From assembly GCA_965261685.1 (NCBI GenBank), contig CBDHDI010000019.1, positions 78,005-142,004 of the forward strand: DNA of 64,000 bases, read 5' to 3'. This document shows, piece after piece, positions 476 through 33,093 of the stretch. The translations under genes and the position numbers were made by a program. Each line of letters opens with the position of its first letter. Position 1 is the first letter of the stretch. Source of the stretch: Dehalococcoidia bacterium. GTDB taxonomy: Bacteria > Chloroflexota > Dehalococcoidia > UBA2979. The notes under the pieces are model-generated. The model was not told where the DNA came from. It was given only the letters and a program-made list of their open reading frames with translations, and did not search any database.

Positions 476-3400
476 ATGAGCCACCGGAAGAAGCGTCGGG
501 GTCGACCGAGGAGGAGAAACCCGCCCCTGGCGAGCGGGGCACCTACTCGCGCTCCCGAGCAGGACTGGAGCCGTGCCGGCGCTCACAACATTGCGGGTGT
601 GAGCTTTCAGGTCGCGGTGACCGCGAAGCTTCTTGTGGGCGCACTTGCAGGCCGGTTTCCGTTGGCCCGCGCGACCCCCGAGGGCTCCGAAGACATAGAT
701 GTCGAACTCAGGGATGGGACTCGGGTGCTCGTCCAGGTGAAAGAACGTGCTCCGTCCACACCCTTCGGACGTTCGAATCTCGCGGACGCCCTGCGGAAGA
801 AGAACACTCTCCTCGAAGGAGACGCTGCTCGCCGGTTCGCCCTGGTGACGGACGCGACGCTTGGCGGCGGCCTGGCTCCGACCGGCTGGGAGCGGCCTGT
901 CACGGAGTGCATTGACCGAACCACTGTCGACGAGCTCGCCGCGCACCTCGAATCCGACTTCGACGATCCCCTGGGGGTCCTGGCCCGAACCCACATCGTG
1001 CAGGTAGAGCGAAGTGTCGTCGAAGACACTCGAAGCGAGCTCGCTGAGCTGCAGGTAATCGGGAGCCGGCCGTCTGTGACCGTCCTTGTCTACGCGCGGC
1101 TGGTGGAACAGATCACCGAGATCGCGGCTCGCCAGCGCTCGGCCACACCAGACACCGCCCAGTCGATCACGCCGTCCGACTTGGAGACACTCGCGACGCG
1201 GGTGGTCGAGACGGTAGATGTCGAGAGCCTGGATGAGGCAGTTCGCACCGGACTCGTCGAGCCCGCGGACTTCGGCGTGCGGGCCGATCTGTCCATCGAA
1301 GAATTCCTGGCCGGCGTCGACGTTCTGCCCGCCCACATTGCGGCCGACCTCGACCTGCCCCGCGACGCCGAGGTTCAAGCGCTCACGCACGCTTTGAGCG
1401 AACAGCATTCGGCGCTGCTCACGGGGCCCTCGGGAGCCGGCAAGTCAGCGCTCATGTGGCGGACCGCTCGAGAACTCTCGGAGGGGACGCGATCGTACCG
1501 ACTGCGGCGACTCCTGCCCGAAGATGTCCCGACCCTTGCGAGGTGGCTCCGGCTGCAGGAGCCCTCCGAGCACTATCCGCTGCTGTTGTGCGCCGACAAC
1601 CTCGGCCGTCCAGCCACCGCGGGCTGGTCCGAATTCGCCCGAGAGTTCATCGACAGGCCCGGTGTACTGCTACTGGGAGCCTGCCGGGAGGAGGACTATC
1701 GCCCGGAGCTGGCGGTGGGCCGGACCACGATTGTCGACCCGACACTCGACCGGGGGCTTGCCGAGGGCATCGGAGCGGCACTGGCCGACCGTGACGTCCA
1801 CACGGTCGTGGACATCGCCGAAGCGTTCGAAGTTTCGGAGGGCCTGCTCATGGAGTTCCTCTCGATGCTGCTGACGGGACGCCGCCTCAAACAGGTCGTC
1901 GAGGATCAGGTGGCAGCCCGCCTCTCGGAGGATCGGAGGACCGAGCGAGAGATCCTCCGATACGTAGCAACGGCCCACTCTGCCGGCGTGGCGATTCCGG
2001 CGGAAGTGCTTGAATCGCTGCTTCCCGACCACGACCTCACTCCAGCCCTCGCCGTACTGAACCGCGAGCACCTTGTCGTCGCGGGCGACGGGAACCGTTG
2101 GCTGGGCCTGCACGAGCTTCGCTCCGAGGTCGCGCGCGACTACCTCCACCAATTCCCGCCTCCGGCTGCGGCAACCACCGTCCGGCGCCTCGTGGAGCAC
2201 CTCTCCGTCGATGACGCGAGCCGGATCATCGAGGTGTATGCCCGGCTGGATGCGGACTTGGTGCCTGCTGCGGAGGCGGTGTCTGGGAGGCTGCGTTCAT
2301 CGGACATCCACGCCGGAGACGCCACACGATTGGTGGCGAGTCTGGCGATGGCCGACGCATTCCGCCACGCCCGCGCGTGCCTGGAGGTCATCGAGGAGCG
2401 CCGGCCAAGAAGCCTCGACCCTTGGACGGCACTCTTCTTTGCCTACTCGCATCGCTTCGGTGGGGTCCGTTTAGACGCCCTCATTGCGATTCGCCCTGGT
2501 CTCGCTCAGCTGACCGAGATGGCGGCTGCGCTGCCACCGCGGCCACCGTCGCTGCGGGACGCGTGCCTGCAGGGCCTGTCTCCGAAAGCCGTGCGTTACA
2601 TCGCACTCCGAGGAACCGCCGACGAGGCTGCTGCATGGCTTGAGTCTCTTGAAGGTTCCGGTGCTGAGCCGACGGCGGCAGCTGAAGCGGTCTGGACCCA
2701 CTTCAGCGGAGCGCCGCTCGATGCTGGCGCACGTCTGTCCGCGACCCTCAGATCGCTCGCCGCACCGGAGGACACCGCACACCTGGGTGAGGTGTTTGGG
2801 ACTCTCGATGTCCAGGTACAGCGACTCGCCGCCGAACTCCCGGATTGTATTGGCGCCGAAACGAAGGACGAACCGGACGGAAGGGTGGTCTCCCTGCGAC
2901 TTTTGGCGCCGGAGGATGCCGCAACGCTTCACGACCGGAGCGTGCAGACGTGCCGGGTGATCTTCGACCTGTGCCCTGAAGCCGACATAGCAGAAGTGAT
3001 CGTCGTCACCCCCGGCGGGGATCGCTACTCCGTTGGCGGTGCCGAGGATGGCCACAAGCGTTTCCCAAGGGCCAATCTTCCGCGGGCGCCCCAAACGAGC
3101 GGGAACGCGAATCTCCTTCGCGCGGCCCGGCTCTTGCTCGCTTCCCACTATTGGACCCAACCGCTGCGAGCGCTTGCCGAAGCCTCCAAGCAGCTACTCA
3201 CACTCCGGGAGGACGCGGCAGCCTGGCTGATCAATCCCAATCACAACGCGGGGCGCAGGCGCAGGGCGGTCACGCTCATCGACTCGCTCGTGGCCGAACT
3301 TGCTGCTCAACCGGGCGAGCCGGTAGGTGAAGACGACGGCGAGGTCGGTAGCAAGGCGAGGGACGCCATGAGCGAAGCACTCACCGTCGTTCGCGACATC

Positions 3401-4432
3401 GCGGCCGCTGAGTCCGTCGACGGTCAGCAGTTGGCGGCTCTCGGCTCGCGGTGCAGGAAGGCCGTCGAGCGTCTCACGGCGGCGCGGCTGGCCGGTCTTC
3501 CCACACTCTCAACCGCTGGCGATCCGCTGCCCGACGCGCTCGACGAGATGATCATGCTGCTCGCCGATGTCCTACTCGTGCATGCCGAGGGCCGTGAAGT
3601 GCCCTTCAGGCGCCTTCGGAGGAGTGGCTCGGAGTCATGGGTGGACGTCGCGGATCGTTTGGTGCGCGAGGCCGCCTCGAGCGGTTACGAGGCGGAGCAT
3701 GCGGCTCTGGAAGAAGCTCTCGGGGCGTCGGCTGAGCGCGAACTCCGCCGGGTTGGGCACGTGGATATGGGGTCTTTGTGGTTCCTCACGGACCGGTGGG
3801 TAGTCATCATCGCGGCTGAAAGTAACGATCCTTATCCCTTGGCCTTTGCTGACCGCCTAGCTCCGGAACTGGTCGAGCAGCTTGCCTTCCGAACCTTCGT
3901 GGTCTTCGGCGCTGGGGGACGCATCCTGCCGCTGAACGGGCTCAAGATGGGTACGTCCCAACTCTGGCCAGCGGACGAAGAAGAGTTGCTGGCGATTGCA
4001 TCAGGGCTTGGCACGGAAGTTGTGGAGTCGCCTCACCTTCAAGCCTGGGACGCATTCGTCATGGAGCTCGTTCGAGCTTCCCGCGCGGCAGCCTTGCTTC
4101 GGCTGCGGGGCAACACGAGCTTGGCGCGAGACGACGCGGCGTTGAGATCCCGCTACGAGTCCGCTCGCAGAGCATTGAAGGCGTGTCACCCGGCTCTGCA
4201 CGACGAAGCCACCCGGTTGCTCGAACGCGTCGAGCGTGAGCCATCTGGCGGCGGGCAGACCCTCGCCGAGGAGTGCTATCGCTCGGTGACGCACGGTGAG
4301 CAGAGTGATGAGGTGGCTGACCTTGCTGCTCTCAGGGTCGCCGCGCAGTCCATCGACCTCCCTGACGGTTACGGGGAGTCACGGCCCGACCTGCTCCAAG
4401 AGCGCTTGCCGGCAGGGCAGTCTCCACGCTAG
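476..4432 (+). CDS. Large STAND-type P-loop NTPase (Avs-like) with an N-terminal PD-(D/E)xK-like nuclease motif and a long C-terminal helical region
   Basis: 1318-aa ORF. Walker A LLTGPSGAGKSALMW sits ~310 aa in; Walker B-like LLLCADNL lies downstream. The N-terminal region has DIDVEL...VLVQVKER, a D...(E/Q)xK arrangement typical of restriction-endonuclease-fold nucleases. The long C-terminal alpha-rich region resembles a sensor domain. The start at 476 is uncertain because the N-terminus is Arg-rich. Confidence 0.55.
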   Translation: MSHRKKRRGRPRRRNPPLASGAPTRAPEQDWSRAGAHNIAGVSFQVAVTAKLLVGALAGRFPLARATPEGSEDIDVELRDGTRVLVQVKERAPSTPFGRSNLADALRKKNTLLEGDAARRFALVTDATLGGGLAPTGWERPVTECIDRTTVDELAAHLESDFDDPLGVLARTHIVQVERSVVEDTRSELAELQVIGSRPSVTVLVYARLVEQITEIAARQRSATPDTAQSITPSDLETLATRVVETVDVESLDEAVRTGLVEPADFGVRADLSIEEFLAGVDVLPAHIAADLDLPRDAEVQALTHALSEQHSALLTGPSGAGKSALMWRTARELSEGTRSYRLRRLLPEDVPTLARWLRLQEPSEHYPLLLCADNLGRPATAGWSEFAREFIDRPGVLLLGACREEDYRPELAVGRTTIVDPTLDRGLAEGIGAALADRDVHTVVDIAEAFEVSEGLLMEFLSMLLTGRRLKQVVEDQVAARLSEDRRTEREILRYVATAHSAGVAIPAEVLESLLPDHDLTPALAVLNREHLVVAGDGNRWLGLHELRSEVARDYLHQFPPPAAATTVRRLVEHLSVDDASRIIEVYARLDADLVPAAEAVSGRLRSSDIHAGDATRLVASLAMADAFRHARACLEVIEERRPRSLDPWTALFFAYSHRFGGVRLDALIAIRPGLAQLTEMAAALPPRPPSLRDACLQGLSPKAVRYIALRGTADEAAAWLESLEGSGAEPTAAAEAVWTHFSGAPLDAGARLSATLRSLAAPEDTAHLGEVFGTLDVQVQRLAAELPDCIGAETKDEPDGRVVSLRLLAPEDAATLHDRSVQTCRVIFDLCPEADIAEVIVVTPGGDRYSVGGAEDGHKRFPRANLPRAPQTSGNANLLRAARLLLASHYWTQPLRALAEASKQLLTLREDAAAWLINPNHNAGRRRRAVTLIDSLVAELAAQPGEPVGEDDGEVGSKARDAMSEALTVVRDIAAAESVDGQQLAALGSRCRKAVERLTAARLAGLPTLSTAGDPLPDALDEMIMLLADVLLVHAEGREVPFRRLRRSGSESWVDVADRLVREAASSGYEAEHAALEEALGASAERELRRVGHVDMGSLWFLTDRWVVIIAAESNDPYPLAFADRLAPELVEQLAFRTFVVFGAGGRILPLNGLKMGTSQLWPADEEELLAIASGLGTEVVESPHLQAWDAFVMELVRASRAAALLRLRGNTSLARDDAALRSRYESARRALKACHPALHDEATRLLERVEREPSGGGQTLAEECYRSVTHGEQSDEVADLAALRVAAQSIDLPDGYGESRPDLLQERLPAGQSPR

Positions 4433-4795
4433 TCGGGGGATTCGGGCTAACGCTCCAGCGCCTCCCAAGAGCGGGCTCGCCCCGGCGATCGCGGAGCGCC
4501 GGAGCGAGAACGTGCAGCTGCACGGCGATTGTTTCACGAGATCGAATTCACTCGCCCGGGCACCCCACTGGCTCGGCACCAGCGTATTCCGTTATCCGAC
4601 TTCACGACCGCCGCTGATAGCCCGCGGCGGGTGGACGGAGACCACCCTCGGCGAGCCCGGGTTCGGGCCTTGGCGGGGCCTTCCACAACGCGCGATAATG
4701 TTACCTACCGCGCGTCGGCCGAGGGCCTGATCTCGCCCCGCAGGACCACCGCGACCCACCCGCGAGCGAGCGAGGGCTGCCGCGTGAGTCGCCGA

Positions 4796-7700
4796 TCAGG
4801 GACGACCTTGTGCCCTTGTTCGCCTCGGGGTGACCGGGCTGACATCAGCCACGATGACCGCAATCTTCCGGGCTTCCTCGCCAGTGAGAGTCTCCCCCAG
4901 GCGCCGCTCCAGCTCGGCGGGCGTCGTGGGGCGGACCCCGTGGGGGGGTGCCTGCAGATCATCCTGGCCGAACCACAACACCAGGTAGATTCCATAGCCC
5001 GACGTTTCGGCATCGCGCGTGTAGTGCTTGATCAACTGGTCCCGGATGGCGCTCCACACATCCCGGTGCGCGTCCTTCTTGATCTCCACGGGGACGTTGA
5101 AGCCGCCGCACGAGACGCGGATATCGGACCGCCGGTCCCCCGCGTACTGCCCCTCGGGTTCAGCGTCCACGCCGTCCGGGAGCCTGGCTCTCAGCTGGGA
5201 GAGCAGCGCGTCCCTGCACGAGTTCTCGTGCTTGGGGCGGCCCCGGTCCGGGCGGCCGTGGGCATCCTCGTTCCAGTACGGGCGCCAGTCGTCGCTGTTG
5301 CCGGTCTGGATCGCCTTGGCGATGTCCTCCAGCCGATCGAGCAGGAGTGCGGCCAAGTCGGCCGGATTCGCCGGCTGCTCGTCCGCGAGCGCGCGATGTA
5401 GCTGATCGAGATTCGGGTGGCGGTACGCGGCGTCGCGGTGGAGGACTCGCTGGTCGTCGCGGGCTCGCTCGAGCCGGGCGCGCCAGCGAGCGAGATCAGG
5501 GTCGGACGCTAGCGCGCTCAATGCCTGCGTGGCGTCGTCGCCGGGTAGGGCACTCAGACGCCGTATCAGGCGCTCGATCTTGCCGGAAGCTGTCATCTCA
5601 AGCGTCACGAACCCGGACATGTCCGATGGCGCGAACGAGCGGCCCATCAATGCGATGAGGGTTCTGAGCGCCGGCGCGCGCTCCTCGTAGCTCGGCGAGG
5701 GGAGGCGGACCGCAGAGCCGCTGGAGCCGAAGAATGCAGCGAGCGCCCGCACACGTCGCTCGCGACCACGCACGAATTCGTCGAGTTGTTCGGTGTACGC
5801 CTCGGGCGCGGCGACGAACCCCGCAGCGAGCCAGCGGACTTGCTGGGCCACCTCCATGCTCTGCCGCAAGAGTCTCGCGTCGACGAGCTCGAGCAGGTTC
5901 GACCGGTCAGGATAGGAGAGAGCGATCCAGAGGAGGCGATCGAGAGTCTCCAGCTTGTTGAGACCGGCCCGGAGCGGGAACTTCCGCAGTACATGCAAAG
6001 TGGTCTGGTGCTTCAGGACGGGATCCGCCTCAAGGAGGTTGATGGCCTCAAGCGCCGGAGCGTAGCTGTCACTATGGCGGATCGCCGTCACGAGGCACCG
6101 AGCCGCCACATCCGCAACGACCTTGGAGAACAGGCTCACCCAGACGCTGTGCCAGTGTGGGAACCCATTGAAGCCCGGCGCACTACAGTAGAAGAACGCC
6201 AACCCCGTCCGCACCTGGCTCTCGGTTAGCTCTGCCAGCCGTTCCGGAGGCTCCCACTCGAGGATGTCCAGACCAGCGAGGAACGGGAAGGCGAAGTAGT
6301 GCATCCGGGATGTTCGCTTCAACCGGATGATCTCATCAACGTCTGGGACATCACTCCGCCACACCGTCCCGCGTAGCCCGGCCAGGGCGGCCTCAATGAG
6401 GTGGTCGTCGCCAGCAAGGAGTGTCGAGAGTCGCTCGTTCGGGGTCCGACGACCGTCCCAGTTCGTCCCGTAGAGGAAGTATGCCCGGCCGAGGTTGTGG
6501 AGCAGCCCGAGCGGGGCCTGGTTCTTGCGCAGTGCTTCGGCGTGAGAGCGAACGACGGCGATCCCATCGTCGCGGGCACGTTTCTCCTCCTCATCAGCTT
6601 GACCGACCTGAGCTGCCTCGGTTGCTTCGAACGTGGCACGGCTCGCCGCTCGGTCGAGCAACACCGGAAAATGCTGCTCCAGGACTTCGTGCCCACGAAT
6701 GCGCTCCCTGAGGACATCCTGCGACAGGCCTCGGTTCCAGAGCGGTTCATCATGCGCAAGAAAGGCCCTCTCCAGAAGTTCCTCCGCAGCCCTCGGATGG
6801 GCGATCGCGAGTGCGGCGGCCTGATCGAGGCACCACAGCCCATAGTCGGGCGGGAAGGCGCTCCCATGCAGAGCCCCCCAGACCTCCAGGACATCGAGCC
6901 GGAAGCTGTCACTGCCATGGCAGCGTTCCAGCCCCTCGAGGATCACCGCCTTCTGGACGTCGGGCCGCTGCTGGAGCCACTCGCGAACCTGCAGCAGCGA
7001 CTCGTCCTGGGAATCGGGGTGCCGCCCGAGCGGAAAGACCGCCGAGCGGAGCCAGTCGTAGAGGTGCGGCGTTGTGAGTTGGTCACCGTACGCGGCAAGC
7101 CCGCGGGCAAGCAGCTGTAGCGGGAGCGAGTCGGCCCCTTGGGATTCGAGGGCAGTCCGTGCGCCTGGAAGGCGCTGTGACAGGTGGTCGAGGAGTTCCG
7201 CGACATCGCCCTCTGACGACTGGTTCGGCAAGTGGTGATGCCAGAACAGCCAGTAGTTCCCTGTTGGACGGAGGTAACTGCCTCCCAGATCTGGGTTTCC
7301 GCCGCCCGTGAGATGGTCCCAGACCTCATCGGGGCCGACGGTCTGCGGGTATAGGCGCGACAGCAGCGTTCCGCGCATTTCGTGATCCGGGTCTGGAATG
7401 GACCCCTCGCGGACTTCCTCTAGGACGCGCGTAAGTTCGCTGGTCCGATCGTCGCCTTTGTCGGTAGCACGGAGCGCTGCGTGAAGGGCCAATTCGGTGA
7501 TGTCGAGCGGCCAGGCGACGTCGCGAACCACCGCCAGCAGCGTCGGGATCAACTCGGGGCGGCGCGGCCCTCCTCCCAAGAGCGCTAGCACGAGCCGTGC
7601 CACCGGCTGCCGGTCGGGATCGCGAGACGGGCTCGTCAGGAGGCCGACGATCACCTGCTTCATGTCGGGAGCGGTGAGCGCCCCGAGCGCGCTGGCGGCT

Positions 7701-8950
7701 TCGAGCCACGACACCTCGCGCCGCAGCAGGTTGAGCGCCTCGCTTCGAGTCAGGGCGCGTAGGAGCTTGCTCCGCTCGTCGGTCGAGAAATCGCGGAGGT
7801 CGCCATAGAGGGCGGCCCCGAGAGGATCCCTGGTGATGAGGAGGTCGCGTGCCTCGCTGCGGTGGGCCGCCAGCCAACCTGAGAGGCCCCGCATCTCGGT
7901 GACGACGGCCGCGTCGGCGCCGCTGATCAGCGCGAGCACCCGCCGCGCGGGGAGCCCGTCCCGAATGCGCCGCGCGAGATACCGGGCGCCCAGGAACTCG
8001 GCGACATGGCGGTGGACAGGCGCGAGCCGGCCCCCGCCGACGGCCCCAAACAACTTCGTGCCGATCGCGTGATCGAGAGCGGAGGAATCGGGGTAGTCGC
8101 AGTCACCCAGGGCGAGGAAATCGGGGTCGGCCTCGCCATTTCTGCGGGAGTGTCCGGCCGCACCCGTCACGAGTTGAGTCGCGCAGAGGTAGCCGGCAGC
8201 GTCGAGCAACTGGTCCTGCCCTGGTGGGCGGTCCCCGAGGGCGTGCTCCTCGTTGTGCTCAGTGGCCATCTGAAGGCAGGCCATCTCGAACGTCTCGAGG
8301 CGACTCTCTGGCCAGCCCGCCTTCTTGCTAACCACATCGGCCAGCATGTTGAGGGTCTGAGGGTTGGTGAGGAGGGCGTCGACGCCTCGCTCGCCCGCCC
8401 GTTCCACGAAGGCACGCGCGTCTTCGATTCCGGGGTGGCTGCCCAGGATCCGCTCGATGCCCGAAGGGGTAAGAGGATCGAGCCGAAGCGTCGTGACTGC
8501 CGCGCTAGGAGCCACGGCGTCGAGCCTTGCCCGATCGTTCTCGCCCAGCCAGTCCGCCTCCCGGCACGAGATGCGGAAGGACGGGCGTCCGAGCGCATCA
8601 AGGCGCCGGCGGATGTCGTCGAGGGGCGTGCGCCTGTCGGAGGAGCCAGCACGCACCTCATCGAGGCCGTCGATGAAGAGGGTCTTGTCTTTCCACTCTG
8701 GATATCGAGCGAGGTCCAGCACCAGGAAGTCGCGAGCATCGAGCAGGACGGAGGCTTCGCCTAGTTCCTCGCACTCACGCTTGAAGGCGGTGGTCTTCCC
8801 GGAGCCTGGGTCGCCCAGGAGGATATACGCCGTTTCGGATCGGAACGCGCTCACAGGCTCGGAACTCGCCTCGGGGTCGGGTCGCTCCTGGGGCCGGGGA
8901 ACTCTCGTGCAGGTGCGCGCGACGATGTGCGTCATGGTTCGCCGAACCAT
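4796..8950 (-). CDS. NACHT-like P-loop NTPase with a C-terminal PD-(D/E)xK-like nuclease domain
   Basis: 1384-aa ORF. Walker A ILLGDPGSGKTT. NACHT-type Walker B LFIDGLDEV (hhhhDGxDE). The C-terminal ~150 aa contain DIRVSCGGFNVPVEIKKD (D...ExK) followed by YGIYLVLWFG. Its start overlaps the stop of the upstream COG1373 gene. Confidence 0.55.
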   Translation of the reverse strand: MVRRTMTHIVARTCTRVPRPQERPDPEASSEPVSAFRSETAYILLGDPGSGKTTAFKRECEELGEASVLLDARDFLVLDLARYPEWKDKTLFIDGLDEVRAGSSDRRTPLDDIRRRLDALGRPSFRISCREADWLGENDRARLDAVAPSAAVTTLRLDPLTPSGIERILGSHPGIEDARAFVERAGERGVDALLTNPQTLNMLADVVSKKAGWPESRLETFEMACLQMATEHNEEHALGDRPPGQDQLLDAAGYLCATQLVTGAAGHSRRNGEADPDFLALGDCDYPDSSALDHAIGTKLFGAVGGGRLAPVHRHVAEFLGARYLARRIRDGLPARRVLALISGADAAVVTEMRGLSGWLAAHRSEARDLLITRDPLGAALYGDLRDFSTDERSKLLRALTRSEALNLLRREVSWLEAASALGALTAPDMKQVIVGLLTSPSRDPDRQPVARLVLALLGGGPRRPELIPTLLAVVRDVAWPLDITELALHAALRATDKGDDRTSELTRVLEEVREGSIPDPDHEMRGTLLSRLYPQTVGPDEVWDHLTGGGNPDLGGSYLRPTGNYWLFWHHHLPNQSSEGDVAELLDHLSQRLPGARTALESQGADSLPLQLLARGLAAYGDQLTTPHLYDWLRSAVFPLGRHPDSQDESLLQVREWLQQRPDVQKAVILEGLERCHGSDSFRLDVLEVWGALHGSAFPPDYGLWCLDQAAALAIAHPRAAEELLERAFLAHDEPLWNRGLSQDVLRERIRGHEVLEQHFPVLLDRAASRATFEATEAAQVGQADEEEKRARDDGIAVVRSHAEALRKNQAPLGLLHNLGRAYFLYGTNWDGRRTPNERLSTLLAGDDHLIEAALAGLRGTVWRSDVPDVDEIIRLKRTSRMHYFAFPFLAGLDILEWEPPERLAELTESQVRTGLAFFYCSAPGFNGFPHWHSVWVSLFSKVVADVAARCLVTAIRHSDSYAPALEAINLLEADPVLKHQTTLHVLRKFPLRAGLNKLETLDRLLWIALSYPDRSNLLELVDARLLRQSMEVAQQVRWLAAGFVAAPEAYTEQLDEFVRGRERRVRALAAFFGSSGSAVRLPSPSYEERAPALRTLIALMGRSFAPSDMSGFVTLEMTASGKIERLIRRLSALPGDDATQALSALASDPDLARWRARLERARDDQRVLHRDAAYRHPNLDQLHRALADEQPANPADLAALLLDRLEDIAKAIQTGNSDDWRPYWNEDAHGRPDRGRPKHENSCRDALLSQLRARLPDGVDAEPEGQYAGDRRSDIRVSCGGFNVPVEIKKDAHRDVWSAIRDQLIKHYTRDAETSGYGIYLVLWFGQDDLQAPPHGVRPTTPAELERRLGETLTGEEARKIAVIVADVSPVTPRRTRAQGRP

Positions 8951-10206
8951 TCGTGCGCTGGGGCCGAGAGAAACTCGTTGAGCGGGATCCCACCCTCCCC
9001 GACAACGAGCGGTCGTGGCGCGTCGAACCGCTCTTCAAACGCGCGCATGGCGCGGTCGTTGGCGCGCCCGTCACCGCTCTTGACCTCGATCCCCACAACC
9101 CGGGGGCCTCGCCGGAGTACGAAGTCGACCTCGTGCGGACCGTCTCGCCAGTACGACATGCCCAGGTTCGGCGGAGCCGTGTTGAAGAGGTGCGCCCCCA
9201 CCGCGCTCTCGACGAGTCTTCCCCAGAAGGTGCGGTCGGCCTTCGCTTCAGCAAAGGAGTATCTGGACGCGGCCGTCATGAGCGCGGTGTTGAGCACGTT
9301 GAGTTTCGGGCTCGACGCTCGGCGGCGCTGCGAACTCCCGGAGTGCTTCGGCAGCCCCGTGAGCAAGCCCGCCGTGGACAGCAGATCGAGATAGCGCGCC
9401 AGCGTCGTCGTGTTGCCGGCGTCCAGGAGCTGTCCGAGCATCTTGTTGTACGAGAGGATCTGCCCGGAGTAGGCCGCCCCGAGCTCGAACAGGTTCTTGA
9501 GCAACGCCGGCTTGTCCACTCGGGTCATCGCGAGGAGGTCACGCTCGAGATGGGGCTCGACGAGCGCATGCAGGATGTAGTCCCGCCACCGTTCCTCATC
9601 CCGGATGAGGGTGACGGCGCCCGGGTAGCCGCCGAAGTAGATGTACTCGTCGAGGGTCAGGTCGAACGCTGCGGACATCTCGGGGAACGCCCAGTGCGTG
9701 ATGCGGATCGGTTCGAACCGGCCGGCCAGACTCTCGCTCAGCCCTGACTGCATCTGGAGCGGGGCCGAGCCGAGGACCACAACGTGCAGGGGCACGCTCC
9801 TGGCGCGGTCGGAATCCCAGAGCCCCTTGATGGTGTCGGACCAGTCCGGGATCTTCTGGATCTCATCGAATACGAGCACAAAGCCCTGGGACGACTCCTG
9901 TGCCTGTTGCCGGGCGTGTTCCCAGGTGCGAGCGAGCCACGCTCTGCCGCGCTCCTCTGTGAGTGGGGCAGTGTCCTCGATGGGCGCAGCGAGGGAGATG
10001 CCGGGAGCCGATGGTGCCGGCTCATCGACCGCGAGATACTGGTTCGGCCGGTCGACCTGGGCGAGCGCCTGGTGCACCATCGTGGTCTTGCCGGTCTGGC
10101 GAGGCCCGAAGATCGCGATCAGCCTGTTCGGCGACTCCTCGAGCCGCGAGACGAGGGTTGTTACACTCTCTCGCTGGAAGCGATCCATGGGGCTATGGTA
10201 CGGCAC
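8932..10206 (-). CDS. AAA+ ATPase of the COG1373 type (AAA_14 + DUF4143)
   Basis: 424 aa. N-terminus LIAIFGPRQTGKTTMV (Walker A), then FDEIQKIPDW (Walker B). The C-terminal ...EVDFVLRRGPRVVGIEVKSGD matches the restriction-endonuclease-like DUF4143 module. It lies immediately upstream of the NACHT-like gene on the same strand with a 19-nt overlap. Confidence 0.8.
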   Translation of the reverse strand: MPYHSPMDRFQRESVTTLVSRLEESPNRLIAIFGPRQTGKTTMVHQALAQVDRPNQYLAVDEPAPSAPGISLAAPIEDTAPLTEERGRAWLARTWEHARQQAQESSQGFVLVFDEIQKIPDWSDTIKGLWDSDRARSVPLHVVVLGSAPLQMQSGLSESLAGRFEPIRITHWAFPEMSAAFDLTLDEYIYFGGYPGAVTLIRDEERWRDYILHALVEPHLERDLLAMTRVDKPALLKNLFELGAAYSGQILSYNKMLGQLLDAGNTTTLARYLDLLSTAGLLTGLPKHSGSSQRRRASSPKLNVLNTALMTAASRYSFAEAKADRTFWGRLVESAVGAHLFNTAPPNLGMSYWRDGPHEVDFVLRRGPRVVGIEVKSGDGRANDRAMRAFEERFDAPRPLVVGEGGIPLNEFLSAPAHEWFGEP

Positions 10207-10272
10207 TGAGTAAAACTACTCAATAGCGACACTCGCAGTGCTTTCGCTTGCCCGCGAACGCCTCCTGACCCG

Positions 10273-11638
10273 AGTAGCGTCCCAGCAAGTGGTGTCACAG
10301 AGGTGGACGTAGGAGACCACCGCGCCATCCTTCACACAGGAATCAGTCACGTGAAGGAGGACTACGGTGGTCAGGGAGAGCGTGAACTTGTTGGAGTTGC
10401 TGCGCAAGCAGGCGGCCGGGGGTGACCTCGACTTCTTGCGTGAGGCCGTCGCGGTGCTCGCCGAGGCGGTGATGGAGGCCGAGGTCGCAGAGCAGGCCGG
10501 CGCCGCCTACGGCGAGCGCAGCCCCGAGCGCATCACCCGGCGCAACGGCTACCGGCCGAGGCGCTGGGACACGCGCGCCGGCAGCATCGAGCTGCAAATC
10601 CCGAAGCTGCGCCAGGGCAGCTACTTCCCCGCCCTGCTCGAGCCGCGCAGGCGCGCCGAGCGCGCCCTGCTCGCGGTGGTCCAGCAGGCGTACGTGGAAG
10701 GCGTCTCCACGAGGCGCGTCGACGACCTCGTGCGCTCGCTGGGCTGCGAGGGCATCTCCAAGAGCCAGGTCTCGAGGATCTGCGCCGAGCTGGACACCGT
10801 CGTCACGAGCTTCCTCGAGCGCCCGCTCGACGGCGGTCCGTACCGCTACCTCTGGCTCGACGCGCTCACCCAGCGCGTGCGCGAGGAGGGCCGTATCGCC
10901 CAGGTCAGCGTCGTCGTCGCCACGGCCGTCAACGCCGACGGCAAGCGTGAGGTGCTGGGCATTGACGTCGGCACGAGCGAGGACGGGGCGTCTTGGCTCT
11001 CATTTCTCCGCGGGCTGGTGGCGCGCGGGCTCTCCGGCGTGGAGCTCGTGACCTCCGACGCCCACCAGGGCCTCAGGGCGGCGATCGCGACCGTCTTCGG
11101 CGGCGCGTCGTGGCAGCGCTGCCGGACGCACTTCATGCGCAACCTGCTCACGCGCGTGCCGAAGAGCGCCGAGGCGCTGGTGGCGACGACCGTGCGCACG
11201 ATCTTCCAGCAGCCGTCGGCGGAGGCGGTGCACGCCCAGCACGCCCGCGTCGTGGAGCAACTGGAGGCGCGCTTCCCCGCGGCCGCGGCGATGCTCGATG
11301 AGGCCGCACCGGAGATTCTGGCGTTCACGGCCTGCCCGGTCGCGCACTGGAAGCAGGTCTGGTCGAACAACCCGCAGGAGCGCCTCAACCGCGAGATCCG
11401 CCGGCGCACCGACGTGGTCGGCATCTTCCCCAACCGCGCCGCGGTCGTGCGCCTGGTCGGCGCGGTGCTCGGCGAGCAGCACGACGAGTGGGCGGTGGCG
11501 AGGCGCTACATGACGATGGTGACCCTGCTGCACCCGCCCGGGCGCGAGGTCACTTCAGGCGAGGAGGTGCTGCTGCAAGCTGCCAGCTAGCAATTGATAA
11601 GGATGGTGCACTGTGACACCAACTTGCGGGACGTGACC
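10273..11638 (+). mobile_element. IS256-family insertion sequence (~1.37 kb) flanked by an 8-bp TSD CTGACCCG
   Basis: Imperfect terminal inverted repeats: AGTAGCGTCCCAGCAAGTGGTGTCACAG at the left end and CTGTGACACCAACTTGCGGGACGTGAC at the right end. CTGACCCG is present at 10265-10272 and again at 11639-11646. The element encloses an IS256-type transposase ORF. Confidence 0.8.
10367..11590 (+). CDS. IS256-family (mutator-type) DDE transposase
   Basis: 407 aa. N-terminal LLELLRKQAAGGDLDFLREAV...ERITRRNGYRPRRWDTRAGSIELQIPKLRQGSYFPALLEPRRRAE is typical of IS256 transposases. Confidence 0.9.
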   Translation: MVRESVNLLELLRKQAAGGDLDFLREAVAVLAEAVMEAEVAEQAGAAYGERSPERITRRNGYRPRRWDTRAGSIELQIPKLRQGSYFPALLEPRRRAERALLAVVQQAYVEGVSTRRVDDLVRSLGCEGISKSQVSRICAELDTVVTSFLERPLDGGPYRYLWLDALTQRVREEGRIAQVSVVVATAVNADGKREVLGIDVGTSEDGASWLSFLRGLVARGLSGVELVTSDAHQGLRAAIATVFGGASWQRCRTHFMRNLLTRVPKSAEALVATTVRTIFQQPSAEAVHAQHARVVEQLEARFPAAAAMLDEAAPEILAFTACPVAHWKQVWSNNPQERLNREIRRRTDVVGIFPNRAAVVRLVGAVLGEQHDEWAVARRYMTMVTLLHPPGREVTSGEEVLLQAAS

Positions 11639-11918
11639 CTGACCCGTGGCAGAGGCACCCGAACTACCACGGGCACGCGCTCGATTTTGTCGCTTCTGAA
11701 GAGTCACGCCCATGTTCGTCGCCCGCGGTTAGGAACACCAGCACCTGTCGCCTCGACTCAGTGATAGGACACGCAGGACTGTTGAGCTCGTGCCGATCGC
11801 GAGGACGGCCTACGTCTGGCACCCCCGTCGCCGGTCTCGATTTGAGCCTTGGGTCGAAGCAGGCACACGGCCGCGCTACGATCGCTCCCAGACCGAAACG
11901 GCCGGGGGTAGGTAGCAG

Positions 11919-14309: not shown

Positions 14310-14818
14310 GTGGTGAGACTCGCTGGTGTTGACTTCCCCCGGCGCCTGACCGAGGCGCTGGAGAGCGACGAACTCGTTGTCTTCGCTGGTGCGGGGGTCT
14401 CGATGGGAACGCCGGCGAACCTCCCGGACTTTGAAGGCCTCGCGACGGCGATCGCTGCAGGGACCGGCGAAGCCCAGCACGAGAGCGAACCCGTGGATCG
14501 CTTCCTCGGTCGGCTAACGAGCAGGGGCACGAACGTTCACGAACGAGCCGCCGACGAGCTCCGCGGAGGTACCCCTGAACCGACCGCCCTGCACGGCGAC
14601 CTGCTGCGGCTCTACCGGACAGCGCAATCCGTCCGTGTCGTCACGACGAACTTCGATGCGCTGTTCGAGCGGGCGGCGGCGCATGTCTTCGATCGGGCCC
14701 CCTCCGTGTTCACGGCTCCCGCTCTGCCACTGGGCAGCAGCTTCAGTGGGATCGTGCATGTCCACGGGGGTCTCGGCGACCCTCGGGGCATGGTGCTCAC
14801 CGACGCCGACTTCGGCAG
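14310..14818 (+). pseudogene. 5' portion (SIR2_2-type sirtuin domain) of a DSR-like defence gene, interrupted by IS21
   Basis: VVFAGAGVS...TTNFDALFE...HVHGGLGDPRGMVLTDADFG are SIR2_2-family motifs. The frame runs straight into the IS21 terminus at 14819. Confidence 0.7.
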
Positions 14819-14868
14819 TGAAGTCAGCGCTCGGATAGTGATCCAATCAGCGCCCGGATGGTGATCCA

Positions 14869-16386
14869 TTGCGGGGCGTGTCCCAGCATCTCCGGCGACG
14901 GGGCCGCGGAGACTGGGGGGAAGGGATGCTCCGAGTGGAAGACGTGCACGTGTTGCGACACAAGGTGCTGGTCGAAGGTCTGAGCCGGCGGCAGGCGGCC
15001 CGGGAGATGGGGATCAGCCGCAACACCGTGCGGCGCTACCTGAGGCTGCCCGAGCCGGTGCGGGTCGAGCGTGAACCGCGGCGGAAGCCGGTCCTCGAAC
15101 GGGTGCAGCCGCGGCTCGACGCGCTGCTGGAGGAGTGGTCGGGGCGGACGACGGCGAAGCAGCGGCTGACGGCGACGAGGCTGCACCGCCAGCTGCGCGA
15201 AGAAGGCTACGAGGTCGGCGAGACGCTGGTACGGAGCTACCTGCGGGAGTGGCGGCGCCGGCGCGCCGAGGTCTACGTGCCGCTGGTGCACCGCCCGGGC
15301 GACGAGGCGCAGGTCGACTTCTTCGAGGTCACCGTCGAGGTGGGAGGCGAGCGCCGCAAGGCCTGGAAGTTCCTGATGCGGCTGATGTACTCGGGCCGCG
15401 ACTTCGTCCGGCTCTACGACCGCCAGGACCAGGTCGCCTTCCTCGACGGCCACGTGCGGGCGTTCGCCCACTTCGGCGGGGTGCCCGCGCGCATCGTCTA
15501 CGACAACCTCGCAGCGGCGGTGCGGCGCGTGCAGTTCCCCCGGCGCCAGCTCACCGAGCGCTTTGAGGCGCTGGTGAGTCACTACCTGTACGAGCCGTGC
15601 TTCGCGCGGCCCGGCGAGGGCCACGATAAGGGCGGGGTCGAGGGGCGCGGCAGGGGCGTGCGGCTGCAGCACCTCACGCCGATTCCCCGCGGCGACTCGC
15701 TGGCCGAGCTCTCGGACTGGCTGCAGGGGGAGGTGGACCGCCACGCCGCGCCGCGGGTGCATGAGCGCTTCGCCGAGGAGCGGCCGCTGCTGCGCCCCGG
15801 GCCCGGCGTCGCGTTCGAGGCGCGGCGGGTGCAGCCGGTCTCGGTGAGCCGCAGTGCGCTGGTGCGCGCCGAGGGGGCCTGGTACTCGGCGCCGAGCCGC
15901 TGGGCGGGCCTGCGGGCGACGGCGCTGATCGGCACCGACGAGCTGACGCTGCGCTGCCGCGGCGAGGAGGTCGTACATCCCCGACAGCCCTTCGGCGGCC
16001 GCCGGGTGGACTACCGGCACTACCTCGGCGAGCTGGCGCGCAAGCCGCAGGCGGTGCGGCAGGTGGCGCCGGAGCTGGTCGCGGCGCTGGGCGAGCCCTT
16101 CGGGCGGCTCTGGACGCGGCTGGAGCGCGAGCAGGGCGCTCAGGAGGGGGCGCGCACCCTTGCGCGGTTGCTGCGGGCCGTCCACGAGCACGGCGAGGAG
16201 CGCGTGCGCGACGTCCTGGAGCAGGTCCTCGAGCAGGAGCGCTTCGACGAGCTCGCCGTGCAGCGTCTGCTCGCCTCGGCCCGGGCGCCGGAGGCAGTGA
16301 CGGTGCCGGAGCCGCTGCGCGGCTACGAGGTCGAGAGCGTCTCGGCGGCCGTCTACGACCGCCTGCTCGCGGCGGCGGCGCCGTGA
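14869..16386 (+). CDS. istA: IS21-family transposase IstA
   Basis: 505 aa. It has the N-terminal HTH ([21 protein letters not shown]) and the conserved IstA core. It is followed by istB with an overlapping stop/start. Confidence 0.9.
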
Positions 16387-17132
16387 ACAACGCGGCTCGC
16401 GCGGCCGTGCTCGAGGCGCACTGCCGCGAACTCAAGCTGCCCACGATCCGCCGCGAGTACCCCGCGCTGGTGCGCCAGGCCACGCACGACGGGTGGGACT
16501 ACGAGGAGTTCCTCGTGCAGTTGCTCGAGGCAGAGGTGCTGGCCCGCCGCGATAGCGCGGTCGCACGCCTGCTGCGCCAGGCGCGCTTCCCCGACATCAA
16601 GACCTTCGAGCAGCTCGACTGGGACGCGCTCGGGGGCGTCGAGCGGCCACAGCTCGCACAGCTCGCGACCTGCGAGTACATCGAGCGCGCCGACGACGTC
16701 GTCATCGCCGGGCCGATCGGCACCGGCAAGACGCACCTCGCGATCGCGCTCGGCGTCGAGGCCGCCCGCCGCCGCCACCGCGTCGCCTTCATCCGCGCCG
16801 CCGACCTCGTGCGCGAGCTGGTCGAGGCACGTGACGAGCTCACGCTCTCGCGGCTCCATCAGCGTTACCTGCGGGTCGCGCTGCTGATCGTCGACGAGCT
16901 CGGCTTCGTGCCCTTCGAGCGCACCGGCGGCGAGCTGCTGTTCAATCTCCTCGCCGACCGCTACGAGCGGCGCTCGACGATCGTCACGACCAACCTCGCG
17001 TTCAGCGAGTGGGTGCAGGTCTTCGGCGACGAGAAACTCACCACGGCGCTGCTCGACCGCCTCGGGCACCACGCCCACATCCTCACCACGCGCGGCGCTT
17101 CCTACCGGACGCGTCACAGAACACAGACCTGA
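16383..17132 (+). CDS. istB: IS21-family helper ATPase IstB
   Basis: 249 aa with Walker [17 protein letters not shown] and Walker [10 protein letters not shown], the IstB/DnaC-like signature. Confidence 0.9.
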
Positions 17133-17239
17133 CCAACGAAGGACTCAGCACCAAGAACGTCAGCAGCGATCGTGGCGCCGGAGTGGATCAACATCCGAGC
17201 GCTGACCTGGATCGCTATCCGAGCGCTGTTGACAGGCAG

Positions 17240-20022
17240 GGCGTACCTGACCGAGGGATGGGCGAGGCGCTTCCTGGTCGACCTGTTTCGCACGCACACC
17301 GTCCTGTTCGTCGGCTACAGCCACGGCGACACGGTCATGAACTACCTGTCGCGAGCCCTGACTCCGGACGCTGGCGACCGGTTCGCGCTCACCGACGAGC
17401 CTGACAGCGCGAACTGGCAGCTGCTCGGCGTCGAGCCCATCGGCTACGAGAAGTCAGCGGAAGGCGACCACAGTGCGCTCGCAGAGGGTGTCCGGCGTCT
17501 CGCCGACTACAGCCGGCGGGGGCTCCTCGACTGGCAGCGCGACATTGCCGACATCGCCAAGAACCCGCCCCCTCTTGATGACGAGGCCACAGACCTGATC
17601 GACGACACCCTGTCCGACCCGGAGCGATGCCGCTTCTTCACCGATGCCGCATCGCATGTGGACTGGATCGCATGGCTCGAACGACGCGGGTATCTGGCCG
17701 CGCTGTTCGAGACCGCGAACCTCACCGAACGTGATGGACGACTGGCGCGATGGCTGGCGGAGCGCTTCGCAGGGGAACACGCCAGCTCGCTATTCCTGCT
17801 GATTGGACGCAACCGCCTGCGGGTTCATCCGTCGTTCTGGCGGGAACTTGCACGGGTGGTGCAAGACAAGGATCGCCCGCTGAGCGCCGCCCCTCTGGCT
17901 CGATGGGTCTCGCTGCTCCTCGCGACCGACTCCCGGATACCCGACGCCAATCTCCTGATGAATTCCCTGGGTGAGCGCTGCGCCGAAGCGGGGCTGACGG
18001 ACGCCCTTCTCGACGTGTTCGACGCGATGGCCGCCGGTGGCCTCGCGATCGAACCGGGGTTCGCCGTGGTGAGCGAGGACGACGGCGAACGTGCGGTCAG
18101 GGTTGAGACAGACCAGCAGCATCACCAGATGGACCAGTTCTCTCTGGAGAGGCTGTACGAGGACCACCTGAAGACCAAGCTCCAGGAAGCGGCTGAATCC
18201 CTGTTGGAGCGGGTAGTTCGCCGCCTGGCGGAGCGGCACCGCACGCTCCGTTCCTGGCAGCAGGCCACCCGGGACGACGACGCGATGAGCTTTCACCGGA
18301 GCGCGATCGAACCCCACGAACAGGACAGCCATCCACAGCTGATCGATGTGCTGATAGACGCAGCTCGTGACGCGCTCGAACACCTGGTTGCGGCTCGCCC
18401 GGACGCCGGGGCGAGGTGGTGCGATCGTTTGGTGGAGGCGGAGGCGCCGCTGTTGCGCCGCCTCGCCGTGCATGCGTTGCGGAGTCGGAGTGACCTCGGC
18501 GCGGACGAGAAGGTCGGGTGGCTGCTGTCCCGCGTCGGCCTGCATGACAGGGCAACGCATCACGAGACGTTTCTGGCGGTACGCGCCACCTACCCCGAGG
18601 CAAGTGTGCCGCAACGCCAGGCGACCATCGATGCCATCCGGACGTACGAGTGGCCCTCTGACGACGACAGGGAGCGCTACACGGCCTATCGACACCTCGA
18701 GTGGTTCCAGTGGCTGCGTGATTCGGACCCGGCGTGCGATCTGGCCAGGGAGGCCCTTGAGGGCGTCCGGCAACGGTACCCAGACTTCCGGCCGAGCGAG
18801 CACCCGGACCTCACCCACTACCACTGGAGCGGCGACTATGAGGGTCCTGAGACTCCGTGGAGCCCCGAGGAGCTGCTTTCGCGGCCTGCTGGCGAGAGCC
18901 TCGAACAGCTCCTGTCGTTCCGTGACGACGACCCGTTCGAGCCGAGTCGCGACGGGCTCTTGCGCAGCGTGGCGGAAGCGGCTAAGCGAGACTTCACGTG
19001 GGGGCTCGCACTGGCCGCCGCGCTGTCCGAGTCGGAGGACTGGGACAGCGATCTCTGGCCGCCGCTGCTGCGCTCATGGTCCGGCGGGCTCGATGAAGAC
19101 AAGCACCGTCAGGCCTTTGCCCGGCTGGGCGATGCCGAGCTCCACCAGCGCCAGATTCAGGCCATCGCTGACATGCTCCTCGCCCTGGTCAAGGATGGGG
19201 GACTTCCCTACGCGTCGGCGCTGCTTAAGGAGTCGAATCAGCTTGCTCGCAGGCTCTGGGCGCACTGCGGTCAAGACGATGGGGAGCCGGGTTCGGAAGG
19301 CTGGTTCGCGGCTGCAATCAACCACCCAGCCGGCGCGCTCACACAGTATTGGCTCTTGAGCCTCTCGTTGTGGAGGAACCGGCACGAGACGCGACCGGAC
19401 GCCATGGATGAGGAGCACTCCTCCGCTCTGCTGCGGGTGATCAATGAACGGGCAGTCGCCGGGAGACTGGGAAGGACCGTTCTGGCCCAGTCCCTGGGAT
19501 TCCTGCTGGCTGCCGATGAAGCGTGGACGAGAGCGCACCTCATTCCGCTGTTTGAAGACACCGACGGCGACGACTACCAGGCTGTCTGGGACGGCCTACT
19601 GCACGGGCGGATGGATCGCAACGTGGTCACTGCGATGGAGGGTGCGATCTTCGCGGCGATCCCTCACATGAGCGATCTGTTTCCGAGTCACAGACAGCAA
19701 CGCGAAGCGTTCATCGCACTGTGCACGGCTGTCGTCACGTACTTCGTCGACGATCCGCTGGACGCCTGGACACCCGGGTTCTTCAAGGCCGCGGACGACT
19801 CGGACAAGCGTCTCTTCGCGTGGAGCGTCGGCAAGAGTATTCGCGGAGTGGATGACGCAGGCCAGCGAGAGTGGTGGGAACGTTGGCTCAAGCAGTACTG
19901 GGAAAACCGGCTTCAAGGCGTCCCTGCACCCCTCAGCGAGGGCGAAGTGGCTGCGATGGTCGATTGGCCACGCTGCTTTGAGAGCCTCTTCCCCGAGGCT
20001 GTCGACCTTGCAGTCAGGATGC
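17240..20022 (+). pseudogene. 3' portion of the DSR-like SIR2 gene (remainder of the SIR2 domain plus ~900-aa C-terminal domain), truncated by IS1380
   Basis: Directly after the IS21 TSD the frame reads RAYLTEGWARRFLVDLFRTHTVLFVGYSHGD (SIR2_2 GYS..D motif). About 925 aa without P-loop motifs follow. From ~20023 the ORF runs into IS1380 sequence, so its last ~50 aa are IS-derived. Confidence 0.6.
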
Positions 20023-24536: not shown

Positions 24537-24794
24537 GAGCTTAAGCTCGTCGGCCTTTTCGTCAGTTACGTAGACGTAGCCCTCGTCGATCAGTCGGTTG
24601 CCCGCGAGGTTGCTACCTCGGATGACTGGGACACCACTCGCCACGAAGTTGTCGGTCTTGATGCGCGATCCGAATGGGCCCATGGCTATCGCGTTCGGGG
24701 TCGCCGCCTTCAGGTCATCAATCTTGACAAGTCGCTGTTCGACGTCGCTAGGCAAGGTCGTCGAACCTGGCCCTGATCTCGTCTTGCAGTGCAC
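24537..24794 (-). pseudogene. hsdS: Truncated type I restriction-modification specificity subunit HsdS (N-terminal ~85 aa only)
   Basis: The minus-strand frame reads ...NAIAMGPFGSRIKTDNFVASGVPVIRGSNLAGNRLIDEGYVYVTDEKADELK, the characteristic HsdS target-recognition stretch. It overlaps the hsdM stop. The frame continues into IS1380 sequence at 24536. Confidence 0.6.
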
Positions 24795-32425: not shown

Positions 32426-33093
32426 CTCGTGTCTCCTTCCCTGGTCAGGGTTGTCGTGGGCTCCGCGGGCTCCTCCCGCGGCAGCGTGAGTGTCCCGGCC
32501 GCCACGGCGTGCGAGAGGTCCTCGCGCAGCGCCTCGGCGTTCGGGGTGCAGCGGTAGGCGGCGATGCCCGCCGACTGCAGCGGCACGATCTCGCCCTCCG
32601 CCAGGCCCCGGCGCCACAGCCAGTCCGCCCAGTTGCGGTGCAGGGGCAGCGGGCTGCGGCGGTCGAGGAAGCGGTGGTGCAGGGCGGGCGCATCCTCCTC
32701 GCCGGGGGCGAGCAGCAGGAACGCGTCCCGCTCGAAGGCGTACTCCGCGAGGCGGGTGTACACCATCGCGTGCCAGCCTCCCGAGACCGGCAGGCGGCCG
32801 ATCTTCGTCGTCCACGTGCCGAGGGTCTCGTAGGGAACCTCGCAGCGGTGGAAGCCGCCCGAGAGCACCGCCCCGTCGGTACCCGCGAGCAGGTGCGCGG
32901 TCTCGGGCGGGTGCTTGAGCAGGGCGGCCCAGATCGCCTTGAGGGCGCTCTGGGCACCGACCATCGAGAGGAACCAGAGTCCCTCCGAGTCGGGGTCGCG
33001 CGCGAAGGCGTCGGCCGTGGCCGAGAAGCCGTTCGCGCTGATCGTGTACAGGTCCCGGGTGTCCGGGGCGGCGTGCGCCTCGATCATGGGCAT
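32422..33093 (-). CDS. Hypothetical protein (223 aa)
   Basis: Its stop is coupled (ATGA) to the methyltransferase start. No motif recognised. Confidence 0.5.
   Translation of the reverse strand: MPMIEAHAAPDTRDLYTISANGFSATADAFARDPDSEGLWFLSMVGAQSALKAIWAALLKHPPETAHLLAGTDGAVLSGGFHRCEVPYETLGTWTTKIGRLPVSGGWHAMVYTRLAEYAFERDAFLLLAPGEEDAPALHHRFLDRRSPLPLHRNWADWLWRRGLAEGEIVPLQSAGIAAYRCTPNAEALREDLSHAVAAGTLTLPREEPAEPTTTLTREGDTR

Follow-up and report, generated by a model that had tools for sequence, protein, structure and literature searches.

A conserved operon of a DUF4143-type ATPase and an EruA-like NACHT protein as a candidate two-gene antiphage module in a Dehalococcoidia genome

Do two adjacent genes of a Dehalococcoidia bacterium, one encoding an AAA ATPase of the DUF4143 (COG1373) type and the other a large NACHT-like nucleoside triphosphatase (NTPase), work together as a single antiphage system, or do they merely lie side by side in a region rich in defence genes? 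The pair is located in a stretch of 64,000 nucleotides (nt) of contig CBDHDI010000019.1 (assembly GCA_965261685.1, positions 78,005 to 142,004 of the forward strand), hereafter the window, in which positions are counted from the first letter. An initial annotation, made from the sequence alone, had proposed a two-gene defence operon at this place. According to our analysis, the gene pair is one conserved two-gene operon, and we think it fairly likely that this operon is a translationally coupled, horizontally mobile antiphage module.

Both open reading frames (ORFs) of the initial annotation are present, co-oriented on the minus strand (Table 1). Judging from their homologues, they are real genes and not chance ORFs of GC-rich DNA, because the second product has more than 2,492 homologues (mostly of ~1,350 amino acids), while the first matches the Pfam families AAA_14 (4e-21) and DUF4143 (1e-25), as had been proposed. 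As first called, the two ORFs do have 19 nt in common, and the longest ORF of the second gene (4796..8950, minus strand, ATG start) does encode 1384 amino acids; however, the true overlap is most likely 4 nt and the product 1379 amino acids long, because 74 out of 78 related loci feature an ATGA (66/78) or GTGA (8/78) junction, and because the gene caller took the ATGA start in a 98%-identical homologue (protein P0001 of locus L087). At this junction (minus strand: ...GAA CCA TGA CGC...), the ATPase ends in ...E-P-stop, and its stop codon overlaps by 4 nt the second ATG of the NACHT gene (8935..8933), which encodes M6 when residues are numbered from M1 at 8950, as is done below. The in-frame start lying 15 nt further upstream, from which the 19-nt overlap results, is found only in some of the 78 loci, and this longer overlap was dropped as the true junction. 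A 4-nt stop–start overlap is a classic layout for translational coupling. As for the ATPase, it may start at an ATG at 10188 (418 amino acids), which is the start called in L087, instead of the GTG at 10206. An exact-sequence look-up of the second protein returned no record from either start codon, and P0001 was used instead. A scan of positions 4300-10700 for promoters and terminators found none on the operon strand, such a scan being uninformative for this GC-rich organism.

Relatives of the pair were examined through a genomic scan using one genome per species, which returned at least 584 stretches; the best 80 loci were analysed, and the pairing figures hold for these. The 80 loci, almost all from metagenome-assembled genomes (MAGs), encode proteins that are 40-76% identical to the NACHT protein of the window, and in 78 of them an ATPase (54-91% identical) is found directly upstream on the same strand, which is the opposite of the lack of synteny elsewhere that would have undone the initial proposal. 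At least 10 phyla are represented (Chloroflexota, Latescibacterota, Acidobacteriota, Actinomycetota, Gemmatimonadota, Verrucomicrobiota, Rhodothermales, Gammaproteobacteria, Binatia and Tectimicrobiota/Entotheonella), with taxa such as Dehalococcoidia, other Chloroflexota, Vicinamibacterales, Acidimicrobiia, Opitutales and Ca. Entotheonella. Clustering of every flanking ORF of the 80 loci revealed no third conserved gene, and the flanks differ between loci; even the 98%-identical pair of L087 has flanks different from those of the window. Moreover, several genomes hold two diverged copies of the pair (L003/L014, L008/L009, L013/L040, L060/L070). The two proteins also co-vary: their pairwise-identity matrices are correlated (r=0.85), a value reached in 0 out of 999 Mantel permutations. 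Mean pairwise identity amounts to 66% among the ATPases and 47% among the NACHT proteins, the ATPase being the slower-evolving of the two.

The only two loci devoid of an ATPase (L051 and L054) belong to one Dehalococcoidia MAG (CATOSI01) and feature a serine-recombinase-like gene upstream in its place, with the NACHT ORF kept at full length. Both nest within the paired clade in a rough neighbour-joining tree, and the loss of the ATPase is therefore secondary. In addition, a profile search of 1.84 billion representative proteins recovered a protein of 1812 amino acids (P0182), in which residues 3-426 correspond to the ATPase (54% identical) and residues 428-1810 to the NACHT protein (40% identical). 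Its gene (L094:3001-8439; ENA ERZ25071132, ctg820282) is carried by a 4.98-Mb circular contig with a coverage of 264x, and the joint (...PATAWL-RSE-FVQRTCTE...) shows no remnant of the ATGA, so that P0182 looks like a genuine gene fusion and not like a frameshift error. Direct observations comprise the pair itself and its conservation, the coupling of its genes at the junction, their co-inheritance and their fusion, and also the NACHT fold and the intact state of the catalytic motifs described below. The metagenome sample in which the fusion was found also holds the unfused pair of L087.

The second protein is best described by comparison with EruA. The NCBIfam model NF058535.1 (EruA) matches it in a single collinear stretch (894 bits; residues 29-1371 versus positions 14-1318 of 1318 in the profile), with motifs common to both in the alignment, and PF28130 (DUF8371) is the Pfam family precomputed for its homologues. 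Both this score and that of the close relative L001 (886 bits) lie below the equivalog cut-off of 1000 bits, which a plasmid-borne Bradyrhizobium protein (WP_247777624.1) exceeds with 1189.6 bits; on these scores, the window protein therefore belongs to an EruA-like sister clade and is not an equivalog. As regards the NACHT domain of the initial annotation, the corresponding Pfam model (PF05729) was not recovered by hmmscan at E-values up to 1, which gave AAA_22, nSTAND_NTPase5 and AAA_33 only, with scores well short of the respective cut-offs. The protein is too divergent for this model, and the assignment is instead carried by the end-to-end EruA match and by the fold, which comprises a nucleotide-binding domain, helical domain 1, a winged helix and helical domain 2, and is closer to NACHT than to other STAND clades.

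The sequence motifs agree with this assignment. In the Walker A motif, residues G46, D47, P48, G49, G51, K52 and T54 are invariant in our alignment A1 (K52 in 79/79 sequences), the Walker B singled out initially (DGLDE, within FIDGLDE) is near-invariant in 79 homologues, and a conserved arginine (R130) is found in 79/79 sequences. Likewise, the winged-helix histidine motif PVHRHVAEFLGARYL is kept even in the solo proteobacterial relatives discussed below. A conserved RTCTE segment is found at the N-terminus of the protein. Mean column conservation is lowest in the central region (0.52), intermediate in the NACHT module (0.64) and highest in the C-terminal core (0.72), and the central region of ~700 amino acids is probably the sensor of the infection cue. 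Searches of solved structures by sequence returned spurious matches only, the NACHT protein hitting a ribosome-recycling factor and the ATPase a RecA P-loop. A phage origin was also considered and dropped, with a single weak and partial match among phage records.

At the other end of the protein, the D...ExK block on which the initial annotation had based a nuclease-like domain, DIRVSCGGFNVPVEIKKD (residues 1276-1293), is near-invariant in 79 homologues. The residues concerned are E1242 (78/79 sequences), E1266 (79/79), D1276 (77/79), E1289 (76/79), K1291 (77/79) and Q1305 (77/79), and this E...D...ExK...Q series is kept in bona fide EruA as well as in relatives from Pantoea, Vibrio and Rhizobium. 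In the structure model, the domain has an alpha-beta-beta-beta-alpha-beta core, with E1242 at the start of helix 1, D1276 ahead of strand 2, the ExK within strand 3 and Q1305 within helix 2, i.e., the canonical positions of a PD-(D/E)xK signature. Motif and topology are thus those expected, but comparisons with known PD-(D/E)xK members using Foldseek, Pfam and hhalign gave no match, for which reason we keep the domain as a putative, motif-based nuclease.

In the ATPase, AAA_14 (residues 27-177) is followed by DUF4143 (residues 221-378), both above cut-offs, and the PADLOC model PDLC04791 (PDC-S01) matches over nearly its full length (E=5e-161, 534 bits; residues 10-421 versus profile positions 2-394 of 395), as expected of PDC-S01/COG1373 proteins. 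The PADLOC search suggested initially therefore names the first gene, but PADLOC models have no match to the second. The catalytic residues of the PD-(D/E)xK motif are intact, with E359 in 78/79 sequences, D361 in 77/79, E374 in 78/79 and K376 in 76/79, and residues 322-390 weakly match YraN-type models. DUF4143/COG1373 has been classified among PD-(D/E)XK families (Steczkiewicz et al. 2012, PMC3424549), and PDC-S01, an ATPase fused to a PD-(D/E)xK domain, is the fourth commonest defence candidate in prokaryotes according to a 2026 survey, in which 39,480 systems were detected in bacteria and archaea and the candidate is still unvalidated (PMC12988326). The window ATPase has the same fusion of an ATPase domain with a PD-(D/E)xK domain (PMC12988326, PMC3424549); however, PDC-S01 is an experimentally unvalidated single-gene candidate, whereas this clade has it as the invariable opening gene of a two-gene operon, with coupling to the NACHT gene at 78 of the 80 loci and a fusion of the two in L094.

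The fixed pair and the fusion point to a putative two-protein immune receptor. From the family resemblances and the arrangement of the genes, we infer a defence function, a physical complex, sensor and effector roles, a nuclease activity and an order of events along the following lines. The NACHT protein would be an NLR-like receptor related to EruA, with an N-terminal NACHT switch, a variable centre and a C-terminal PD-(D/E)xK-like domain, and with its centre it would detect the infection cue. Upon assembly, which would require NTP, the nuclease activity of either protein or of both would then be unleashed on the DNA of the phage or of the host, the C-terminal domain probably cutting nucleic acid, while the PDC-S01-type AAA+ ATPase would contribute its own intact PD-(D/E)xK domain to the same complex. 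Because the genes are translationally coupled and once even fused, their products are probably synthesised at a constant stoichiometry and work as a single complex, in which the C-terminus of the ATPase would probably lie beside the N-terminus of the NACHT module. The ATPase, which evolves more slowly, may supply the constant enzymatic function, and the NACHT protein, which evolves faster, may determine the specificity. In its most specific form, this is a paired receptor, in which a NACHT sensor and a PDC-S01 ATPase-nuclease would build one hetero-oligomeric machine, and the former would be the first known functional partner of COG1373/DUF4143; we offer this version tentatively.

Such a receptor would resemble several known systems without belonging to any of them. 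The NACHT protein is laid out like EruA (NF058535.1, equal to DUF8371, PF28130), with NACHT at the N-terminus, then a long central part and finally the E...D...ExK...Q domain, and the bona fide EruA of Bradyrhizobium plasmid pCW1_1 (1189.6 bits) has the same motifs for Walker A, for Walker B, for the winged-helix histidine and at the C-terminus, but identity with the plasmid-borne EruA relatives is about 25-35%, the window clade lies outside them in a rough neighbour-joining tree, and the window gene is coupled to an upstream DUF4143 ATPase that no NCBIfam model recognises as an Eru component. HyoA (NF058534.1) is, on sequence comparison, a sister family that is further removed but similarly laid out: its profile matches residues 150-1330, the C-terminal end of the profile included, but with 171 bits for a cut-off of 1200, the window protein is not a member. 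With bNACHT and Avs/AVAST systems, the pair has in common, partly from general knowledge, a STAND-type NTPase switch, a variable sensor, a nucleic-acid-degrading or other effector, the location in defence islands and horizontal spread. Membership in Avs/AVAST itself, in which the effector is N-terminal and a TPR-like sensor C-terminal, was considered and rejected. Finally, the paired NLRs of plants and animals (NAIP-NLRC4, plant NLR pairs) would be functional analogues, with two linked P-loop oligomerising NTPases as one receptor unit, except that the partner is here an AAA_14/DUF4143 ATPase and not a second NACHT protein, and that the hetero-oligomer is putative.

Would the two proteins share the work differently? 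The NACHT protein might be a sensor and switch only, with a regulatory, oligomerisation or ligand-binding C-terminal domain, and the ATPase, recruited in trans, the sole nuclease and effector. No fold or profile search put the C-terminal domain among PD-(D/E)xK proteins, which speaks for this division, as does the ATPase, which belongs to a published PD-(D/E)XK family (PMC3424549), has intact catalytic residues and is the more conserved partner, as expected for an effector. Yet the motif spacing and the alpha-beta-beta-beta-alpha-beta topology fit a PD-(D/E)xK core, and the solo EruA relatives, which bear an antiphage name in NCBIfam, keep their C-terminal E...D...ExK...Q residues without any ATPase and hence need an effector of their own, so that we regard an ATPase acting as the only effector as unlikely. 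The roles could also be reversed, the ATPase being a negative regulator or guard that holds a toxic NACHT nuclease off until infection, in the manner of a toxin–antitoxin pair. Neutralisers are commonly encoded upstream of their toxins and translationally coupled to them, as the ATPase is here, and the tight co-variation fits a protein–protein interface; against this, solo EruA-family proteins persist without a partner in many genomes, L051 and L054 have lost the ATPase but kept a full-length NACHT ORF, the ATPase retains catalytic nuclease residues that an inhibitor would not need, and an in-frame fusion is easier to reconcile with a constitutive complex than with an inhibitor that has to be released. 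An inhibitory guard is hence decidedly unlikely.

Another question is whether the module is antiviral at all, or whether it serves the addiction, exclusion or DNA processing of a mobile element, or the repair of host DNA. The pair is horizontally mobile and often lies beside insertion sequence (IS) elements and recombinases, the window holds conjugation genes, and the sole tested PDC-S01 representative gave no protection (bioRxiv 10.1101/2024.09.26.614923). We nevertheless hold a non-antiviral role to be improbable: the closest families carry antiphage names in NCBIfam, the neighbours in the window and in L087 are defence genes, and the flanks are unconserved, so that no mobile-element gene travels with the pair. 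As to two independent single-gene systems (PDC-S01 and an EruA-like one) that simply co-travel in defence islands, both families do occur solo elsewhere and PADLOC models the ATPase as a single-gene candidate, but 78/80 adjacency in the same order and strand with ATGA/GTGA overlaps across at least 10 phyla and unrelated flanks, the co-variation, the natural in-frame fusion and the separation of the paired clade from solo relatives for both proteins (rough neighbour-joining trees) make this the least credible explanation, which we strongly disfavour.

Several points weigh against the two-gene antiphage module itself. First, the pairing figure holds for the 80 closest of the at least 584 genomic relatives alone, and it stops at more distant ones: in a sample of nine proteobacterial plasmid relatives of the NACHT protein (two from Bradyrhizobium, two from Pantoea, and one each from Rhizobium, Agrobacterium, Vibrio, Burkholderia and Ralstonia; 25-35% identity), which include WP_247777624.1 (pCW1_1), the one above the EruA cut-off, a DUF4143 ATPase within 3.5-5 kb is found in 0/9. 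In a rough neighbour-joining tree, none of the nine is placed within the paired clade, and the small ORFs upstream of these solo genes show no relation to each other. Second, the closest plasmid homologues of the ATPase (Coxiella pQpDG, 51%; Thermus, 47%; Bacteroides, 43%) are solo genes in unrelated contexts, located just outside the paired ATPase clade in a rough neighbour-joining tree. Because such solo relatives exist on both sides, the partner may be dispensable or merely modulatory. Third, the defence role is here transferred from a family name, NCBIfam labelling EruA and HyoA as antiphage proteins, and the window protein scores below the EruA equivalog cut-off. Fourth, a representative of PDC-S01 that was expressed on its own in E. 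coli B gave no protection from T7, T5 or T4 in a study of cold seeps (bioRxiv 10.1101/2024.09.26.614923). Fifth, the copy in the window may not be normally expressed, given the IS256-family element only 17 bp upstream. When these observations are set beside the conservation described above, the module looks like the union of two families, each able to stand alone, that became fixed in one large clade. The Coxiella burnetii gene (L084, plasmid pQpDG 19127-20362), which is the closest homologue of the ATPase in a cultured organism, adjoins integrase fragments and Dot/Icm effector genes.

The initial annotation knew of no described system pairing such proteins. The pairing itself, and likewise the fusion, are described neither in PADLOC v2 nor in NCBIfam release 20 nor in the literature searched, the publication naming EruA not having been located, so that a prior description is possible; each gene, however, is already catalogued singly. 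DefensePredictor and the 2026 STAND survey mention neither EruA, nor HyoA, nor a DUF4143 partner, while our literature searches returned nothing on DUF8371/PF28130, PDC-S01 in survey papers only, and COG1373 in unrelated mentions. Since both halves are known (EruA/DUF8371 and PDC-S01), what appears to be new is their obligate pairing and the fusion. For annotation, this matters because current tools label only half of the operon, as PDC-S01, or call it hypothetical. If our reading is right, some of the PDC-S01 genes that surveys count as single-gene systems would be only one of two components, and the solo proteins, too, may depend on partners or on specific triggers. The NACHT-linked clade would thus give a concrete and testable context to PDC-S01 ATPases, which are abundant and have no demonstrated function. 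The NLR-like architecture would also be unusual, with an N-terminal NACHT domain, a C-terminal putative nuclease and a second P-loop enzyme as an obligatory partner, and bears on how NLRs recruit helpers. Many of the hosts (Ca. Entotheonella, Ca. Poriferisocius and others) are, judging by the names of their MAGs, presumably sponge symbionts. The module is, by these names, common in sponge-associated bacteria and is present in two copies in several genomes, so that it is probably of ecological relevance there.

Table 1. Positions of the operon, of its domains and motifs, and of neighbouring features within the window.
Feature	Position	Strand	Basis or remark
Gene 1, ATPase, 424 amino acids from GTG at 10206	8932..10206	-	AAA_14 + DUF4143, PDC-S01/COG1373 type
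ATPase Walker A, GPRQTGKT, residues 34-41	10084..10107	-	G39, K40, T41 in 79/79 sequences
ATPase Walker B, DEIQ, residues 114-117	9856..9867	-	D114 79/79, E115 78/79
ATPase PD-(D/E)xK motif within DUF4143, E359-V-D361 ... E374-V-K376	9079..9132	-	Residue conservation
ATGA junction, gene 1 stop overlapping conserved gene 2 start	8932..8935	-	Direct sequence reading
Gene 2, EruA-like NACHT NTPase, 1379 amino acids from conserved ATG at 8935	4796..8935	-	
NACHT module (nucleotide-binding, helical, winged-helix subdomains), residues ~35-450	7601..8848	-	
NACHT Walker A, GDPGSGKTT, residues 46-54	8789..8815	-	Motif conservation
NACHT-type Walker B, FIDGLDE, residues 92-98, then invariant R100	8657..8677	-	D94, D97, E98, R100 79/79
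Winged-helix histidine motif, PVHRHVAEFLGARYL, residues 311-325	7976..8020	-	H313, E318 79/79
Central, mostly variable region, residues 451-1160, presumed sensor	5471..7600	-	No Pfam match
C-terminal PD-(D/E)xK-like domain, residues 1225-1345, presumed effector	4916..5278	-	
D1276-I-R ... E1289-I-K1291 block	5078..5125	-	Residue conservation
Stretch with IS256-family element (transposase 10367..11590)	10224..11870	+	NCBIfam IS256 transposase 2.6e-103
STAND NTPase, 1318 amino acids, convergent to operon	476-4432	+	Weak nSTAND_NTPase5 match, residues 277-409; weak LmuA-like match, N-terminal
Dsr1-like SIR2 gene split by IS21 (istA, istB ~14817-17234)	14313-20168		N-terminal 168 codons 14313-14816, rest 17235-20168
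Two IS1380-family copies, 99.94% identical over 1671 bp	20019-21689, 22866-24536		Around IS5-family transposase gene 21738-22712
Type I restriction-modification methyltransferase	24748-26298	-	
Schlafen/AlbA_2 protein	26651-27940		
ResIII/Helicase_C protein	29021-31351	-	
DUF6094 methyltransferase	31391-32815	-	
VirB4/TraC-like ATPase	44640-46916		
Type IV coupling-protein-like gene	46951-49527		
Giant ORF, 3747 amino acids, ~24 Calx-beta repeats + LapA, cadherin, Ig-like domains	52712-63955	-	

The surroundings of the operon had been called a defence island, which is a fair description in view of the genes listed in Table 1: a STAND NTPase, itself probably involved in defence, a Dsr1-like gene, a type I methyltransferase and a Schlafen/AlbA_2 protein lie nearby, among many IS elements. 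Defence-type neighbours found in the window and in L087 are of the SIR2/Dsr1-like, HEPN plus nucleotidyltransferase, STAND NTPase and restriction-modification methyltransferase kinds. The IS256 stretch, which starts 17 bp upstream of the GTG of the ATPase, is not part of the system; L087 lacks it and has a stretch of 85 bp in its place. The element probably displaces the native promoter of the operon, which may be silenced or driven from an outward-facing promoter. The Dsr1-like gene has itself been interrupted by IS21, its homologue in L087 being uninterrupted at this point, while the IS1380 and IS5 copies may represent a composite or nested insertion. Further downstream, the conjugation genes suggest that the island is perhaps part of, or adjacent to, an integrative conjugative element, and the giant ORF close to the end of the window probably encodes a surface adhesin.

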